Source: Eledone cirrhosa
Lineage: Eukaryota
Length of the DNA: 64,000 nucleotides
Assembly (NCBI GenBank): GCA_964016885.1
Contig: OZ024743.1
Coordinates: 106,826,001-106,890,000 of the forward strand
Reading direction: 5' to 3'
A program made the translations under genes and the position numbers. Below the pieces are notes generated by a model that saw only the letters and a list, made by a program, of their open reading frames with translations, searched no databases and was not told the origin of the DNA. This document shows positions 10,879-59,398 of this stretch, piece by piece (position 1 is the first letter of the stretch; each line of letters opens with the position of its first letter).

Positions 10879-11760
10879 ATAAACGGAAAAAATGAAACGA
10901 AATAAGTACTTATATTTAAGTAACAGCCGTACTAAGAGTGGGAAATGAAATTTCGTTTCATTTTTTCCGTTTATCGTTTTCGGTGCACCCCGCCGATTAA
11001 CTCACTCGATATGCAAATTGGGCTACTCGGCCGTTAACATGCATAAGGTAAGTATATACGTTCAACAATCTAGCAGGAAGGTATACGTTGCTGACGATAG
11101 CTAATAAGGTTGAAACTAGTACAGCGTTCCTTTGTCAGTGTTGAACAAACGAGCAACGATGGTTGCTGGACACTACGGCTTAATACGGGATGTTTGTTTA
11201 CAAACACACCGAGCATTATAATAAATGTTCGGTGAATGCATACGTACATATATATATGTGTGCATGTATGTATATATATATATACATACTACTGTACGTC
11301 TGTATACATATATGTATGTACGTGTACATACTTATATTTAAGTAACAGCCGTACTAAGAGTGGGAAATGAAATTTCGTTTCATTTTTTCCGTTTATCGTT
11401 CTCGGTGCACCCGGCCGATTAACCCACTCGATATGCAAATTGGGCTACTCAGCCGTTAACATGCATAAGGTAAGTATATACGTTCAACAATCTGGCAGGA
11501 AGGTATACGCTGCTGACGATAGCTAATAAGCTTGAAACTAGTACAGCGTTCCTTTGTCAGTGTTGAACAAACGAGCAACGATGGTTGCTGTACACTACGG
11601 CTTAATACGGGATGTTTGTTTACAAACACACCGAGCATTATAATAAATGTTCGGTGAATCCATACGTACATATATATATGTGTGCATGTATGTATATAGA
11701 TATATACATACTACTGTACGTCTGTATACATATATGTATGTACGTGTACATACTTATATA
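10879..11760 (+). mobile_element. Retrozyme-like tandem repeat, 2 x 422 bp, each unit with a hammerhead
   Basis: Units start at 10907 and 11329. HHRs at 11085-11127 and 11507-11549. A short inverted piece at 10879-10902 mirrors 10950-10975. Confidence 0.8.
11507..11549 (+). ncRNA. Type I hammerhead ribozyme (second copy; first at 11085-11127)
   Basis: ACGCTG CTGACGA T-AGC-taataa-GCT-T GAAA CTAG TA CAGCGT: 6-bp stem I, palindromic stem III, GUA site. Confidence 0.9.
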
Positions 11761-43398: not shown

Positions 43399-43414
43399 TA
43401 TATATATATATATA

Positions 43415-44978
43415 CATAATCGGAGAAAGCTAATAGCGATACTCCGGCCAAATTCCAACTCACTCAACAAACATTAGGAAATACCTGAGTATATTCCTAA
43501 TTAAACGTTCGGGGTGCTAACTAATTGTATTGTGTGGAAAATTGGCTGTATCATTTCAAATGAGATATATCAAATATATCACTTCCCAGATTTCTACAAG
43601 TTGGGTGAAATTATTCCAATTTATGTAGAAGCTTGTATAAGATCAACAGTTACTTATTCAAGTGGGCTCTTATAATTCTTCAGTGGGTGCCCAATAATAT
43701 TAATATTGATAACCAAATCAACATCAATATTTAGCGATAATCACCATCAGTGCTTGAGGGAGCTGCTAGGTTGTTAGTCCAGCAGTTCTAAAGAAAATCT
43801 CACACTGTCTCAAAAATAGGAGGAAGGAGACTACCGCGAAAAAACAATACATGCGCAGGTCAATGAATTCTGAAAATAATTCAAGCCACGTGCTAGAACT
43901 CAATTGAATATGAAAATACAAGCACATGTGCGCACCGTTTGATGAGACACATAGATATTTTCTCGGGCAAAATAACAGAATGAGATACAAGAACAAACAA
44001 TCAATATTCATATAAAAAGGCGGTGGATTGGCAGTATCGGTAGAGGGTCGGACGCCATGCTTTCCAGCATAGTTACGTCCCTTTACGATCTGAGTTCAAA
44101 TCCCGCCGAGGTTGACTTTGCCTTTCATCCTTACGGGGTCGATAAAATAAGTACCAGTAATGAACTGGATAATTGCTGGCCTTGTGCCTAAAGTAGAAAC
44201 ATATATTCATATAAAAAAATAATCAAAGAGAGTCATACCTTATATCGGGAAAGTTCATATCTGTTGCTCCAAGAGTAAATATATAAATACATAATCGGAG
44301 AAAGCTAATAGCGATACTCCGGCCAAATTCCAACTCACTCAACAAACATTAGGAAATACCTGAGTATATTCCTAATTAAACGTTCGGGTTGCTAACTAAT
44401 TGTATTGTGTGGAAAATTGGCTGTATCATTTCATTTGAGATATATCAAATATATCTCTTCCCAGAGGACTCGTTTCACTATAAGATTTCTACAAGTTGGG
44501 TGAAATTATATCAATTTATGTAGAAGCTTGTATAAGATCAACATATACTTATTCAAGTGGGCTCTTATAATTCTTCAGTGGGTGCCCAATAATATTAATA
44601 TTGATAACCAAATCAACATCAATATTTAGCGATAATCACCATCAGTGCTTGTGGGAGCAGCTAGGTGGTTAGTCCAGCAGTTGTAAAGAAAATCTCACAC
44701 TCTCTCGAAAATAGGAGGAAGGAGACTACTGCCAAAAAACAATAGATGAGCAGATCAATTAATTCTGAAAAGAATTCAAGCCACGTGCTAGAACTCAATT
44801 GGATATGAAAGAATAACCACATGTGCGCATCGTTTGATGACACACATAGGGTATTTTCTCGGGCAAAATAATAGAATGAGATACAAGAACAAACAATCAA
44901 TATTCATATAAAAAATAATCAAAGAGAGTCATACCTTATATCGGGAAAGTTCATATCTGTTGCTCCAAGAGTAAATAT
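43415..44978 (-). mobile_element. Tandem pair of ~690-bp units with a long-stem-II hammerhead
   Basis: Units at 43415-44282 and 44290-44978. Minus-strand CCCA CTGAAGA ATTATAAGA...TCTTATAGT GAAACGAGTCCTC TGGG at 44460-44582. The GAAAC segment is deleted in the left copy. Confidence 0.7.
44019..44202 (+). mobile_element. tRNA-derived SINE with 15-bp TSD
   Basis: TSD ATATTCATATAAAAA at 44004-44018 and 44203-44217. The empty site is visible in the duplicate unit at ~44900. Confidence 0.95.
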
Positions 44979-44984
44979 ATATAT

Positions 44985-45869
44985 ATATGAATGTATATAT
45001 AGTGTATTTTGCAATACACTGTATGCTTAATTAAAAGCAGTTCGAAGACCTTACGCTATTGTTTTAGAGTAGTGACAGTCTCACAGCAAACAGGGGAGAT
45101 AAAGCTGACAGAGCTATGTTTCGTACTGATTGGTACTTATCTAAGCCAAGTACTCCACCTGTTTGCTGAAAATCATGAATGTTTGATTCTTATTGAATTA
45201 TAGTAATAATCCGGAACTGATTATACAAAAGCATTTCGAAGACCTGACCGGGGGCCGCTCTGTATAATCAGTTCCTGATTATTACTAGAATTCTATAAGA
45301 ATCAAGCATTCATGATTTTCAGCAAACAGGTGGAGTACTTGGCTTTGATAAGTACCAATCAGTACGAAACAGAGCTCTGTCAGCTTTATCTCCCCTGTTT
45401 GTTGAACATTTAAAGTAAGTGAGACTGTCCCTACTCTAAAACAATAGCGTAAGGTTTTCGAAATGCTTTAAATTAAGCATACAGTGTTTTGCAAAATACA
45501 TTATATACATTCACATATATATCGCTATTTCAGAGCAATAATTCTAATTTTCAATTTCTACCTGACCGGCAACCGCTCTGTGTAATCAGTTCCTGATTAT
45601 TACTAGAATTCTATAAGAATCAAACAATCATCATTTTCAACAAACAGGTGGAGTACTTGGCTTTGATAAGTACCAATCACTACGAAATAGACCTCTGTCA
45701 GCTTTATCTCCCCTGTTTGCTGAAAATTTAAAGTAAGTGAGACTGTCACTACTCTAAAAGAATTGCGTAAGGTCTTCGAAATGCTTTTGCAAAATACACT
45801 ATATTGCAAAATACACTATATATACATTCATATATATATATCGCTATTTCAGAGCACCAATTCTAATTA

Positions 45870-45872
<3 letters not shown>
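44985..45872. mobile_element. Retrozyme-like ~318-bp family: inverted partial unit plus about 2 direct units
   Basis: Minus arm 44985-45244; plus units start at ~45244 and 45562. HHR-like motifs at 45103-45147 (-), 45341-45385 and 45659-45703. Shares blocks with the 310-bp array. Confidence 0.8.
45341..45385 (+). ncRNA. Hammerhead ribozyme with UUGAUAA (U3-A8) core variant
   Basis: GGCT TTGATAA GTAC-caatca-GTAC GAAAC AGAGCTCT GTC AGCT. Confidence 0.75.
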
Positions 45873-46554: not shown

Positions 46555-46642
<88 letters not shown>

Positions 46643-46647
<5 letters not shown>

Positions 46648-47086
46648 TAAAAGGAATTCCAACTTTATCTGATTTACTCGTTTTATTTGCAATCCTTTAA
46701 AATTATAATGAGATTATAATGAAAGAGTATGGTAGAATATTAAATGTTAAGTGTTAATTGAACAAGTACTTTCATGCTTTCGCAATCTTCAGGTTCATAT
46801 TCAGTGGTGACAGTCAAATTTGCAATTTTTAACTGTGTTGAAAATTGCCAACTTGAGTGTCACCACTGAACATGAACCTGAAGATTTTGAAAGCATGAAA
46901 ATTGCAAACTTGACTCTCACCACTGAATATGAACCTGAAGATTGCGAAAGTATGAAAGTACTTGTTCAATTAACACTTAACATTTAATATTCTACCATAC
47001 TATTTAATTCTAATATCATTATAATTTCAAAGGATTGTAAATAAAATGAGTAAATCAGACAAAGTTGGTATTCCTTTTATTAATAT
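46643..47086. mobile_element. Palindromic pLTR insertion with a hammerhead in each arm
   Basis: Arms ~46643-46830 and ~46898-47086. TGAAC CTGAAGA T-TGC-gaaa-G(C/T)A-T GAAA GTACT T GTTCA at 46759-46797 (-) and 46930-46968 (+). Partial ~58-bp duplication near the centre. Confidence 0.85.
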
Positions 47087-47446
47087 AATCTTCTATGCAC
47101 AATCATACACACCCGTGTGTATATATATACATATATATATATATATTTATATGCAGTCGTTATATTTTAATTTGTTGGGATACAACAAGCTTAAAAAATG
47201 TTTATAACTGATATAATGCACTCAACAAATTATTGGAGTAAATACAATATATTAACAAATGGAAGCTCCAACCGTTAAGGTTGTCTTTTTTTCAGGGTAT
47301 GTCAATATTTATTTATAAAACTAATCTGTATTGAATTTTATATGATGAAAGCGCACCATAATTTGCCTTGGTGGCTCTTGAAATATGTATAATAATATAA
47401 ATATGGTTTTATAAATATAGTTTCCATTTTTTAATATATTGTATAT

Positions 47447-51430: not shown

Positions 51431-51460
<30 letters not shown>

Positions 51461-51470
<10 letters not shown>

Positions 51471-54400
51471 AATATAGACATAGAATATTCGAAAATATTC
51501 TGTATGTTTATAATAAACATTTTGAAGACCTAATCGCTATAGAATAGAATACGTCACGTATTACAATTAGATTCTCGATAAAAGCAAGGGAAGTAATCTA
51601 CGCGTTTCATTCTTGTTAGAAATCATCAGGACCACATATCCAGTGCTTTTATCGAGAATGACACAGCTAGAGACTTATAGAATACTTAGCTGTGTACAGG
51701 AACTGGTTTGAAAGAGCGGTTGCCGGTCCGGCAGAAATTAGAAATTGGAATAAATGCTCTGAAATAGCGATATATATGTGAATATAGACATAGAATATTC
51801 GAAAATATTCTGTATGTTTATAATAAACATTTTGAAGACCTAATCGCTATAGAATAGAATACGTCACGTATTACAATTAGATTCTCGATAAAAGCAAGGG
51901 AAGTAATCTACGCGTTTCATTCTTGTTAGAAATCATCAGGACCACATATCCAGTGCTTTTATCGAGAATGACACAGCTAGAGACTTATAGAATACTTAGC
52001 TGTGTACAGGAACTGGTTTGAAAGAGCGGTTGCCGGTCCGGCAGAAATTAGAAATTGGAATAAATGCTCTGAAATAGCGATATATATGTGAATATAGACA
52101 TAGAATATTCGAAAATATTCTGTATGTTTATAATAAACATTTTGAAGACCTAATCGCTATAGAATAGAATACGTCACGTATTACAATTAGATTCTCGATA
52201 AAAGCAAGGGAAGTAATCTACGCGTTTCATTCTTGTTAGAAATCATCAGGACCACATATCCAGTGCTTTTATCGAGAATGACACAGCTAGAGACTTATAG
52301 AATACTTAGCTGTGTACAGGAACTGGTTTGAAAGAGCGGTTGCCGGTCCGGCAGAAATTAGAAATTGGAATAAATGCTCTGAAATAGCGATATATATGTG
52401 AATATAGACATAGAATATTCGAAAATATTCTGTATGTTTATAATAAACATTTTGAAGACCTAATCGCTATAGAATAGAATACGTCACGTATTACAATTAG
52501 ATTCTCGATAAAAGCAAGGGAAGTAATCTACGCGTTTCATTCTTGTTAGAAATCATCAGGACCACATATCCAGTGCTTTTATCGAGAATGACACAGCTAG
52601 AGACTTATAGAATACTTAGCTGTGTACAGGAACTGGTTTGAAAGAGCGGTTGCCGGTCCGAGTCTCTAGCTGTGTCATTCTCGATAAAAGCACTGGATAT
52701 GTGGTCCTGATGATTTCTAACAAGAATGAAACGCGTAGATTACTTCCCTTGCTTTTATCGAGAATCTAATTGTAATACGTGACGTATTCTATTCTATAGC
52801 GATTAGGTCTTCAAAATGTTTATTATAAACATACAGAATATTTTCGAATATTCTATGTCTATATTCACATATATATCGCTATTTCAGAGCATTTATTCCA
52901 ATTTCTAATTTCTGCCGGACCGGCAACCGCTCTTTCAAACCAGTTCCTGTACACAGCTAAGTATTCTATAAGTCTCTAGCTGTGTCATTCTCGATAAAAG
53001 CACTGGATATGTGGTCCTGATGATTTCTAACAAGAATGAAACGCGTAGATTACTTCCCTTGCTTTTATCGAGAATCTAATTGTAATACGTGACGTATTCT
53101 ATTCTATAGCGATTAGGTCTTCAAAATGTTTATTATAAACATACAGAATATTTTCGAATATTCTATGTCTATATTCACATATATATCGCTATTTCAGAGC
53201 ATTTATTCCAATTTCTAATTTCTGCCGGACCGGCAACCGCTCTTTCAAACCAGTTCCTGTACACAGCTAAGTATTCTATAAGTCTCTAGCTGTGTCATTC
53301 TCGATAAAAGCACTGGATATGTGGTCCTGATGATTTCTAACAAGAATGTAACGCGTAGATTACTTCCCTTGCTTTTATCGAGAATCTAATTGTAATACGT
53401 GACGTATTCTATTCTATAGCGATTAGGTCTTCAAAATGTTTATTATAAACATACAGAATATTTTCGAATATTCTATGTCTATATTCACATATATATCGCT
53501 ATTTCAGAGCATTTATTCCAATTTCTAATTTCTGCCGGACCGGCAACCGCTCTTTCAAACCAGTTCCTGTACACAGCTAAGTATTCTATAAGTCTCTAGC
53601 TGTGTCATTCTCGATAAAAGCACTGGATATGTGGTCCTGATGATTTCTAACAAGAATGAAACGCGTAGATTACTTCCCTTGCTTTTATCGAGAATCTAAT
53701 TGTAATACGTGACGTATTCTATTCTATAGCGATTAGGTCTTCAAAATGTTTATTATAAACATACAGAATATTTTCGAATATTCTATGTCTATATTCACAT
53801 ATATATCGCTATTTCAGAGCATTTATTCCAATTTCTAATTTCTGCCGGACCGGCAACCGCTCTTTCAAACCAGTTCCTGTACACAGCTAAGTATTCTATA
53901 AGTCTCTAGCTGTGTCATTCTCGATAAAAGCACTGGATATGTGGTCCTGATGATTTCTAACAAGAATGAAACGCGTAGATTACTTCCCTTGCTTTTATCG
54001 AGAATCTAATTGTAATACGTGACGTATTCTATTCTATAGCGATTAGGTCTTCAAAATGTTTATTATAAACATACAGAATATTTTCGAATATTCTATGTCT
54101 ATATTCACATATATATCGCTATTTCAGAGCATTTATTCCAATTTCTAATTTCTGCCGGACCGGCAACCGCTCTTTCAAACCAGTTCCTGTACACAGCTAA
54201 GTATTCTATAAGTCTCTAGCTGTGTCATTCTCGATAAAAGCACTGGATATGTGGTCCTGATGATTTCTAACAAGAATGAAACGCGTAGATTACTTCCCTT
54301 GCTTTTATCGAGAATCTAATTGTAATACGTGACGTATTCTATTCTATAGCGATTAGGTCTTCAAAATGTTTATTATAAACATACAGAATATTTTCGAATA

Positions 54401-55692
54401 TTCTATGTCTATATTCACATATATATCGCTATTTCAGAGCATTTATTCCAATTTCTAATTTCTGCCGGACCGGCAACCGCTCTTTCAAACCAGTTCCTGT
54501 ACACAGCTAAGTATTCTATAAGTCTCTAGCTGTGTCATTCTCGATAAAAGCACTGGATATGTGGTCCTGATGATTTCTAACAAGAATGAAACGCGTAGAT
54601 TACTTCCCTTGCTTTTATCGAGAATCTAATTGTAATACGTGACGTATTCTATTCTATAGCGATTAGGTCTTCAAAATGTTTATTATAAACATACAGAATA
54701 TTTTCGAATATTCTATGTCTATATTCACATATATATCGCTATTTCAGAGCATTTATTCCAATTTCTAATTTCTGCCGGACCGGCAACCGCTCTTTCAAAC
54801 CAGTTCCTGTACACAGCTAAGTATTCTATAAGTCTCTAGCTGTGTCATTCTCGATAAAAGCACTGGATATGTTGTCCTGATGATTTCTAACAAGAATGAA
54901 ACGCGTAGATTACTTCCCTTGCTTTTATCGAGAATCTAATTGTAATACGTGACGTATTCTATTCTATAGCGATTAGGTCTTCAAAATGTTTATTATAAAC
55001 ATACAGAATATTTTCGAATATTCTATGTCTATATTCACATATATATCGCTATTTCAGAGCATTTATTCCAATTTCTAATTTCTGCCGGACCGGCAACCGC
55101 TCTTTCAAACCAGTTCCTGTACACAGCTAAGTATTCTATAAGTCTCTAGCTGTGTCATTCTCGATAAAAGCACTGGATATGTGGTCCTGATGATTTCTAA
55201 CAAGAATGAAACGCGTAGATTACTTCCCTTGCTTTTATCGAGAATCTAATTGTAATACGTGACGTATTCTATTCTATAGCGATTAGGTCTTCAAAATGTT
55301 TATTATAAACATACAGAATATTTTCGAATATTCTATGTCTATATTCACATATATATCGCTATTTCAGAGCATTTATTCCAATTTCTAATTTCTGCCGGAC
55401 CGGCAACCGCTCTTTCAAACCAGTTCCTGTACACAGCTAAGTATTCTATAAGTCTCTAGCTGTGTCATTCTCGATAAAAGCACTGGATATGTGGTCCTGA
55501 TGATTTCTAACAAGAATGAAACGCGTAGATTACTTCCCTTGCTTTTATCGAGAATCTAATTGTAATACGTGACGTATTCTATTCTATAGCGATTAGGTCT
55601 TCAAAATGTTTATTATAAACATACAGAATATTTTCGAATATTCTATGTCTATATTCACATATATATCGCTATTTCAGAGCATTTATTCCAAT
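51461..55692. repeat. 310-bp hammerhead-containing tandem array (retrozyme-like) with central inversion
   Basis: About 3.9 minus units (period marks 51471, 51781, 52091, 52401), then about 9.8 plus units starting at 52661, 52971 ... 55451. Units are essentially identical; substitutions were seen only at 53349 and 54873. Confidence 0.97.
52701..52743 (+). ncRNA. Type I hammerhead ribozyme (representative of 14 copies)
   Basis: GTGGTC CTGATGA T-TTC-taacaa-GAA-T GAAA CGCG TA GATTAC. Predicted cleavage after 52737. Enclosed by the 16-bp stem ATTCTCGATAAAAGCA/TGCTTTTATCGAGAAT. Confidence 0.92.
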
Positions 55693-58828: not shown

Positions 58829-59398
58829 GGATTTAAATGGATACAGTCCAGTAAAAGGAATTTATTGACACGTGTTTCAATAACAGTTATATAACCTGAA
58901 AACGGTTGCTATCTACAAAGTATTAATTATGCAGACACTCAATATTTCAATGTTATTTTCAACTATCATTTCATCAGAATAATCTCATTGAGAACTTGTT
59001 TGGTTTTTATAGAGAATATTAAGAGGGAGGAGTGAAGTTAGAAGAATAGTTAAGGAAGTGGATAGAAATGTTTGATAGCAGTGGTAATTAGATTCCCATC
59101 TGTTGTTTTGACATTATTATAGAATACATTATTTGGCGTTGGTTATTTTTCTAAATCTATAGAATGATTAGAGATAGTAAAGATAGGCATGGTTGGTTTT
59201 GTGTTTGCACTTAATTAACATACAGACTTAAATTTTTCTTTCAAGTGTGTGTATCCATTCGCCCTCACATAGATATATGTGTATATATACTTATTTTTTT
59301 TAAAAAACATACACATTCACACACATACATATATGCACACCTCTACAAATACATGCACTCATATACACATACTTACATGCTCATACTTACATACCTAT

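Follow-up and report, generated by a model that had tools for sequence, protein, structure and literature searches.

A dispersed U3-A8 hammerhead retrozyme of Eledone cirrhosa, likely a non-autonomous Penelope-like element

The window analysed here is a 64,000-nt stretch of Eledone cirrhosa DNA (GenBank GCA_964016885.1, contig OZ024743.1, 106,826,001–106,890,000, forward strand), from an assembly of 3.0 Gb in which (TA)n tracts are abundant. At 44979–45868 it carries one inverted arm and two direct units of ~318 bp (318–322 bp across the family), and further downstream an array of a sister family with 310-bp units (family D). The main features, in window coordinates, are:

44979–45868, no strand assigned: whole insertion (inverted arm, junction, two direct units), with (TA)n on both flanks
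44979–45227, minus strand: inverted, 5′-truncated arm; outer limit at the ‘short’ end (ATATAT tract of the unit)
45227–45245, minus strand: 19-nt junction filler, an inverted piece of the unit
45242–45559, plus strand: direct unit 1, 318 bp
45316–45330 with 45394–45408, plus strand: 13-bp outer stem around the ribozyme, covarying across subfamilies
45332–45393, plus strand: intact type I hammerhead, core UUGAUAA (U3, A8) at 45345–45351
45352–45365, plus strand: stem II of this hammerhead (GUAC/GUAC), with GAAA at 45366–45369
45369–45380, plus strand: 12-nt palindromic stem III; cleavage predicted after C45381
45510–45595, plus strand: shared block, with ATATAT tract (short end, ~45522), 26-nt tail (long end, ~45548), GACCGGCAACCGCTCT at 45564 and CAGTTCCTG at 45587
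45560–45868, plus strand: direct unit 2, decayed, terminating at the ‘long’ (tail) end
51460–55692, no strand assigned: young 310-bp array of family D, canonical C3-G8 hammerhead with ACGCGU palindrome; inverted arm 51460–52660 (short end), direct arm 52661–55692 (long end)

One of the three hammerheads at the locus is intact (45345; GUC triplet, stem I with an internal loop); the copy in unit 2 (45663) has changes in stems II and III, and the inverted copy has a broken core (damage at 45132–45144) and a 15-nt deletion after the outer stem. Units 1 and 2 (45242–45868) are 88.8% alike, a 17-nt duplication being present in the latter (45787–45821), and the junction filler is likely the product of a template jump. 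The ~320-nt family unit contains no ATG-initiated orf >30 aa (longest, 28 aa) and lacks the reverse transcriptase (RT) and GIY-YIG orf by which an autonomous Penelope-like element (PLE) is recognised.

The left flank (43401–44914) is a ~640-bp direct repeat (92%) split by a common SINE-like repeat of ~190 bp (44019–44207), of which several further copies are found within the window. A simple scan identified other hammerhead-like cores at 11091 (within a 422-bp tandem), 26059, 58977 (minus strand), 63274 and 63813 (minus strand), those at 58977 and 63274 lying within a long inverted pair. The segment 5′ of the intact ribozyme (45269–45310; CCTGA ... ATTC TATAA GAAT CAAAC) resembles a dead D-type hammerhead, a weak likeness (p 0.025, one of 30 tests).

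The U3-A8 core, in place of C3-G8, was overlooked in the initial annotation and belongs to a dispersed family with copies on many contigs. The core pattern with N at positions 3 and 8 gave 633 matches (control, 0), with T3/A8 in 99 of the 100 matches listed. A pattern 5′ of the ribozyme (2,760 matches) revealed sister subfamilies, at least six of which make up the clade (A, A2, A3, B, C and D): A2 and A3 are U3-A8, with stem II GCAC/GUGC or GCAU/AUGC (901 matches; T3/A8 in 93 of the 100 listed), and B, C and D are C3-G8. Among 89 distinct segments, the 76 that were parsed comprise 53 T3/A8, 22 C3/G8 and one T3/C8. In a tree of 30 rows, midpoint-rooted only, all U3-A8 copies form one clade (100/99) sister to B, and D lies on a long branch. 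Positions 3 and 8 are reported to pair, single changes killing the ribozyme and a double change partly rescuing it (PMC11167929), and the U3-A8 core is known from about 1,300 Schistosoma PLE motifs (PMC4209133).

Selection on RNA structure, with covariation of the enclosing stem as its check, had been proposed at the outset and is borne out across subfamilies. In an alignment of 16 natural copies picked to span the subfamilies, with 27 pairs set by hand, 94% of cells are paired (slid controls, 34–46%) and 16 of the 27 pairs are changed on both sides, among them pair 3-8, seven of the 13 outer-stem pairs and three of the four stem II pairs; as the aligned rows are related, these represent a handful of events in few independent lineages, not 16. 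The same annotation described the ribozyme as a different module from that of the 310-bp units. Its sequence does differ, but all subfamilies have colinear, homologous ribozymes distinguished by compensatory substitutions, so that the difference is mostly divergence in place. To judge from the sequences, the subfamily ribozymes have thus mostly diverged where they stand and do not seem to have been replaced, exchange with an autonomous PLE being hinted at only by the hammerhead of the 310-bp family.

Stem III is a perfect 12-nt palindrome found in two forms (38/85 and 9/85 copies), distinguished by compensatory changes flanking the centre, a place at which hairpin closure is impossible, and predicted to fold at −20 kcal/mol as dimers versus −1.8 or 0 alone. 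The position of these changes suggests that the hammerhead may fold as a dimer via stem III, and dimeric folding is known for animal hammerheads (PMC4209133). The geometry of a 121-base stretch aligns to Rfam HH9, a weak match at 18.1 bits, below the gathering score of 52, and the ribozyme of the 310-bp family scores similarly. An Rfam scan of the whole window listed neither hammerhead family, and its miRNA matches, all below gathering score, were rejected as hairpin artefacts. The U3-A8 type I hammerhead is predicted to be self-cutting; of nine predicted retrozyme dimers assayed in vitro in one study, eight failed to cleave (10.64898/2026.07.22.740005).

Aligned end to end, a natural 320-nt unit and the 310-bp unit share 67% identity (score 186, versus −39 ± 13 for 300 shuffles, best 10), in agreement with the original view of the two as sister retrozyme families. 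The similarity is not confined to blocks and covers the ribozyme too, with 17–18 of 20–21 positions identical in four alignment windows (the GGTCTTC block, ATATAT tract, tail and GACCGG block) and 9–14 of 20–22 per window in the ribozyme and its stem. All blocks initially quoted as near-exact between the families exist, namely CAGTTCCTG at 45269 and 45587, ATTCTATAAG at 45290 and 45608, and AGGTCTTC at 45770 (plus strand), 45245 and 45051 (minus strand), with the enclosing stem arms at 45316/45394 and 45634/45712; however, the 28-nt block is exact only at 45510 and GACCGGCAACCGCTCT only at 45564. The copy of the 28-nt block at ~45830 carries changes, and most copies of the family have CATAT where the quoted block has CACAT.

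Exact matches to the 26-nt shared block number 18,246 in the genome, and the loci read from that search belonged to family D. Copies of D are 95–100% alike (10 loci, seven of them chosen as best matches) and those of subfamily A 95.4% alike (18 segments). Copies diverge by about as much inside one locus (3.2%, 25 pairs) as between loci (3.7%, 820 pairs), as would be expected of a past burst followed by decay. The U3-A8 subfamily was amplified earlier and is now decaying, and its 310-bp sister is recent. Family D is very young, with units identical to those of the window on at least nine contigs and arrays of up to 16 units, and is probably the best substrate for experiments.

Insertion ends were called at 140 loci, giving 74 distinct two-armed insertions that were scored, one cut by the locus edge and 49 loci in which no inverted junction was called. 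Outer ends occupy two fixed sites inside the shared block, the ATATAT tract (short) or a position about 26 nt further (long). Short plus long ends were found in 55 insertions, two long ends in two and two short ends in one, while 16 had one end elsewhere, a class inflated for B and C because their ends were measured against A references. The tail signature (one short and one long end) is therefore present in 55 of 58 classifiable insertions. The best-match locus set is biased towards long ends; end-class counts were 14, 1 and 2 in the position-sampled A set and 15, 0 and 1 in D. (TA)4 follows 101 of 132 ends. The shared layout of the locus and the 310-bp array, noted initially, is confirmed: both run from a short end at left to a tail end at right.

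PLE insertions are described as targeting microsatellites and as carrying an inverted truncated arm and, often at just one end, a tail (PMC8557442); PLE RT is reported to start at two neighbouring internal sites, by which the tail is defined, and both strands are cut and extended (PMC11167929). As the insertion ends match those of Penelope-like transposons, the element likely spreads by means of a borrowed PLE copying enzyme. Overall, this non-coding ~320-bp repeat with a U3-A8 type I hammerhead and hundreds of dispersed copies is likely a non-autonomous PLE (non-LTR retrozyme) using the RT of another PLE.

Inner junctions show an even distribution along the unit. The cleavage site is crossed by 112 of 132 arms, and just 3 of 148 truncations fall within 8 nt of it, against 8 expected; the template was therefore not a cut linear monomer, and a circular or multimeric one would fit. 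In family D, whole arrays have variants common to both arms, some of them found in one sampled array only; such private variants, fixed in all units of both arms, number two in one array (L278) and one in another (L281), implying a monomer bottleneck.

Copying was probably from circular RNA. Beside the observed anatomy, copy numbers, covariation, end positions and arm lengths, a cycle can be proposed in which cleavage, circles and the identity of the enzyme are what we infer. A multi-unit copy would be transcribed, and paired hammerheads, joined via palindromic stem III, would excise a monomer to be circularised by a host ligase. A PLE RT-endonuclease would then cut both strands of a (TA)n site, and each target end would prime synthesis at one of two fixed sites that lie inside the unit, in the shared block, and are separated by 26 nt. 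The RT would travel round the template and stop at random, and the two cDNAs would join head to head. Hammerhead cleavage is reported to be dispensable for PLE insertion in vitro (PMC11167929).

The same PLE machinery might instead copy a long uncut multi-unit transcript of a source array, the hammerhead being kept and no circle formed. A homogeneous source array would give read-through of the cleavage site and array-wide variants just as well, and unprocessed RNA is given as the main substrate of PLE RT in vitro (PMC11167929). The monomer bottleneck implied by array-private variants and the selection on cleavage implied by ongoing compensatory change in the ribozyme argue against this template, which is rather unlikely.

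The genome is rich in GIY-YIG PLEs (10,596 candidates, of which 150 were scored, with 64 stretches read); the partner search covered 30 GIY-YIG loci, 14 long-orf loci, 20 more and Hydra-like loci. About nine families were distinguished, about six Neptune-like, two Hydra-like and one other. These labels are presumptive, drawn in part from motifs described in PMC8557442 and not from a tree. Intact Neptune-like and Hydra-like orfs, inserted in (TA)n, are abundant, and several families have long orfs and copies 98–99% alike. Within the window, an inverted pair at 46575–47152 resembles by eye the 3′ pseudo-LTR (pLTR) of a Neptune-like family (L154, L162) and is likely a short two-armed PLE insertion.

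The initially proposed search for the block in the pLTR of an autonomous partner was negative among the PLE families sampled: the backbone was absent from these roughly nine families, a partial sample of the genome's PLEs, and a profile of ten natural backbone segments found no partner among the PLE loci. The best of 30 local alignments with shuffles (p 0.005 and 0.025) were non-significant after correction. Patterns seeking the block in another context gave 17 matches that deviate after it, none running into an orf. At one locus (L016:1906–2050) a retrozyme arm and a piece of Hydra-like pLTR meet head to head without a TA spacer, possibly through co-insertion; this is the only one of 46 arm starts read to abut a PLE piece directly, too little for chimeric insertions to serve as evidence of a partner.

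Ribozyme modules might have been swapped between retrozyme and autonomous PLEs by template switching, the RT-start backbone being kept. The D hammerhead (52706–52733) matches that of a Hydra-like pLTR (L216:627–652) at 26 of 28 nt (E 1.4e-5), including a stem II with a U.U pair and a GUA triplet, and the two have no other sequence in common. Most autonomous PLE hammerheads read are also U3-A8 (Neptune-like L151, L157, L239 and L232; Hydra-like L218). Against this, A, B and C are linked by single compensatory steps, and A3, which resembles a Neptune-like hammerhead, is nested inside A in a tree that is midpoint-rooted only; since it is derived and not basal there, Neptune-like family G was rejected as donor of the U3-A8 ribozyme. 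Axolotl is also reported to have a U.U pair at the base of stem II (PMC7229834), so that the D/Hydra-like match may be convergent. Module swapping is doubtful, to about the same degree as the uncut template. Equally tentative is the idea of a lineage that keeps a fixed PLE RT-start module while its ribozyme changes, by an in-place switch from C3-G8 to U3-A8 and by capture from a Hydra-clade PLE, with one PLE enzyme dimer using two obligatory sites on one RNA circle to prime the two ends of the target. If so, thousands of arrays would be direct footprints of rolling-circle reverse transcription, with the active 310-bp family as a ready substrate.

The shared block had been put forward as a cis-element, either an RT start region or a promoter. 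As the footprints match PLE insertions and the ends map inside it, the block appears to hold the RT start sites and is most likely the reverse-transcription start (and recognition) region. The helices predicted for it, among them one of AGAGC with GCUCU that surrounds the long end, are 93% paired and mostly invariant (2 of 29 pairs double-changed), a near-invariance that fits protein recognition and leaves the helices themselves as predictions. A metagenome scan for the block gave no matches. That it is mainly an internal promoter is distinctly less likely: an invariant TATAAG-like motif lies about 50 nt upstream of the core and multi-unit copies require a promoter somewhere, but both insertion ends fall inside the block, and the RNA needed by a PLE in vitro is reported to reach about 55 nt past the start sites (PMC11167929), where GACCGGCAACCGCTCT lies. 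The two roles may coexist.

The units could also be solo pseudo-LTRs, 5′-truncated products of an unsampled autonomous PLE, since truncated PLEs are described as leaving the same ends and inversions (PMC8557442) and the survey scored 150 of the 10,596 GIY-YIG candidates. Up to 16 consecutive head-to-tail units with no orf between them, the single PLE-abutting arm start and its head-to-head orientation, and the 17 matches that leave the block without leading to an orf make this improbable. An ordinary satellite or AT-rich repeat spread at the DNA level, its hammerhead incidental, is hardly credible, as the long perfect arrays of the sister family are outweighed by dispersal over many contigs, fixed 3′ ends, random 5′ truncation, inversions and covariation.

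The locus is thus a real element, a non-LTR retrozyme that works like a non-autonomous PLE, and in itself a decaying copy of a known kind of repeat. No description of the family was found in the literature on retrozymes, hammerheads and Penelope elements, cephalopods included; Repbase, Dfam and supplements, which may bear on novelty, lay outside that search. Target-primed copying of a retrozyme circle by a PLE enzyme is presented as a hypothesis in PMC7229834 and PMC4209133, and the later steps of PLE copying are left unvalidated in PMC11167929. The genomic footprints described here are unusually clear for a mechanism so far only hypothesised. The clade offers start sites at base level, a near-strict rule of one short and one long end, and a young sister with identical copies on many contigs, which make the target-primed circle-copying model directly testable with purified PLE protein. 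Hammerhead screens fixed on CUGANGA miss whole families, the U3-A8 form accounting here for >1,500 retrozyme matches.

Metazoan non-LTR retrozymes (PMC7229834; Li et al. 2026, 10.64898/2026.07.22.740005) are likewise described as AT-rich, non-coding tandem units of 150–450 bp, each with a type I hammerhead, with two sister families per genome in axolotl and PLEs proposed as the mobilising partner. The element described here differs in its U3-A8 core, 12-nt palindromic stem III, fixed short and tail ends and inverted arms (the word ‘inverted’ is absent from the main text of PMC7229834). Expression and circles are reported for metazoan retrozymes in the same two sources; for a unit of the present family, a search for RNA records listed four rows from one study, none on record as RNA. 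For Xenopus, 24 of 57 retrozyme families are listed with homology to transposable elements, nearly all PLEs, whereas no pLTR homology was found here among about nine PLE families. With EN+ PLEs (Neptune, Hydra and Poseidon, as described in PMC8557442, PMC11167929 and PMC4209133) it shares (TA)n targets, partial tandems, an inverted 5′-truncated arm, a tail at one end and two adjacent RT start sites downstream of the hammerhead; it differs in having no RT or GIY-YIG orf, a tail of 26 nt instead of 30–40 and, in place of a minimal hammerhead, one of canonical size within a long covarying stem. Non-autonomous Chlamys elements such as MRC1 (PMC8557442) are also non-autonomous PLEs with multicopy head-to-tail insertions, but are described there as mostly without hammerheads and as matching autonomous partners at the 3′ end. 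There is precedent for every feature, and the value of the clade lies in its clear end rule, the core switch within one clade and the young sister family.
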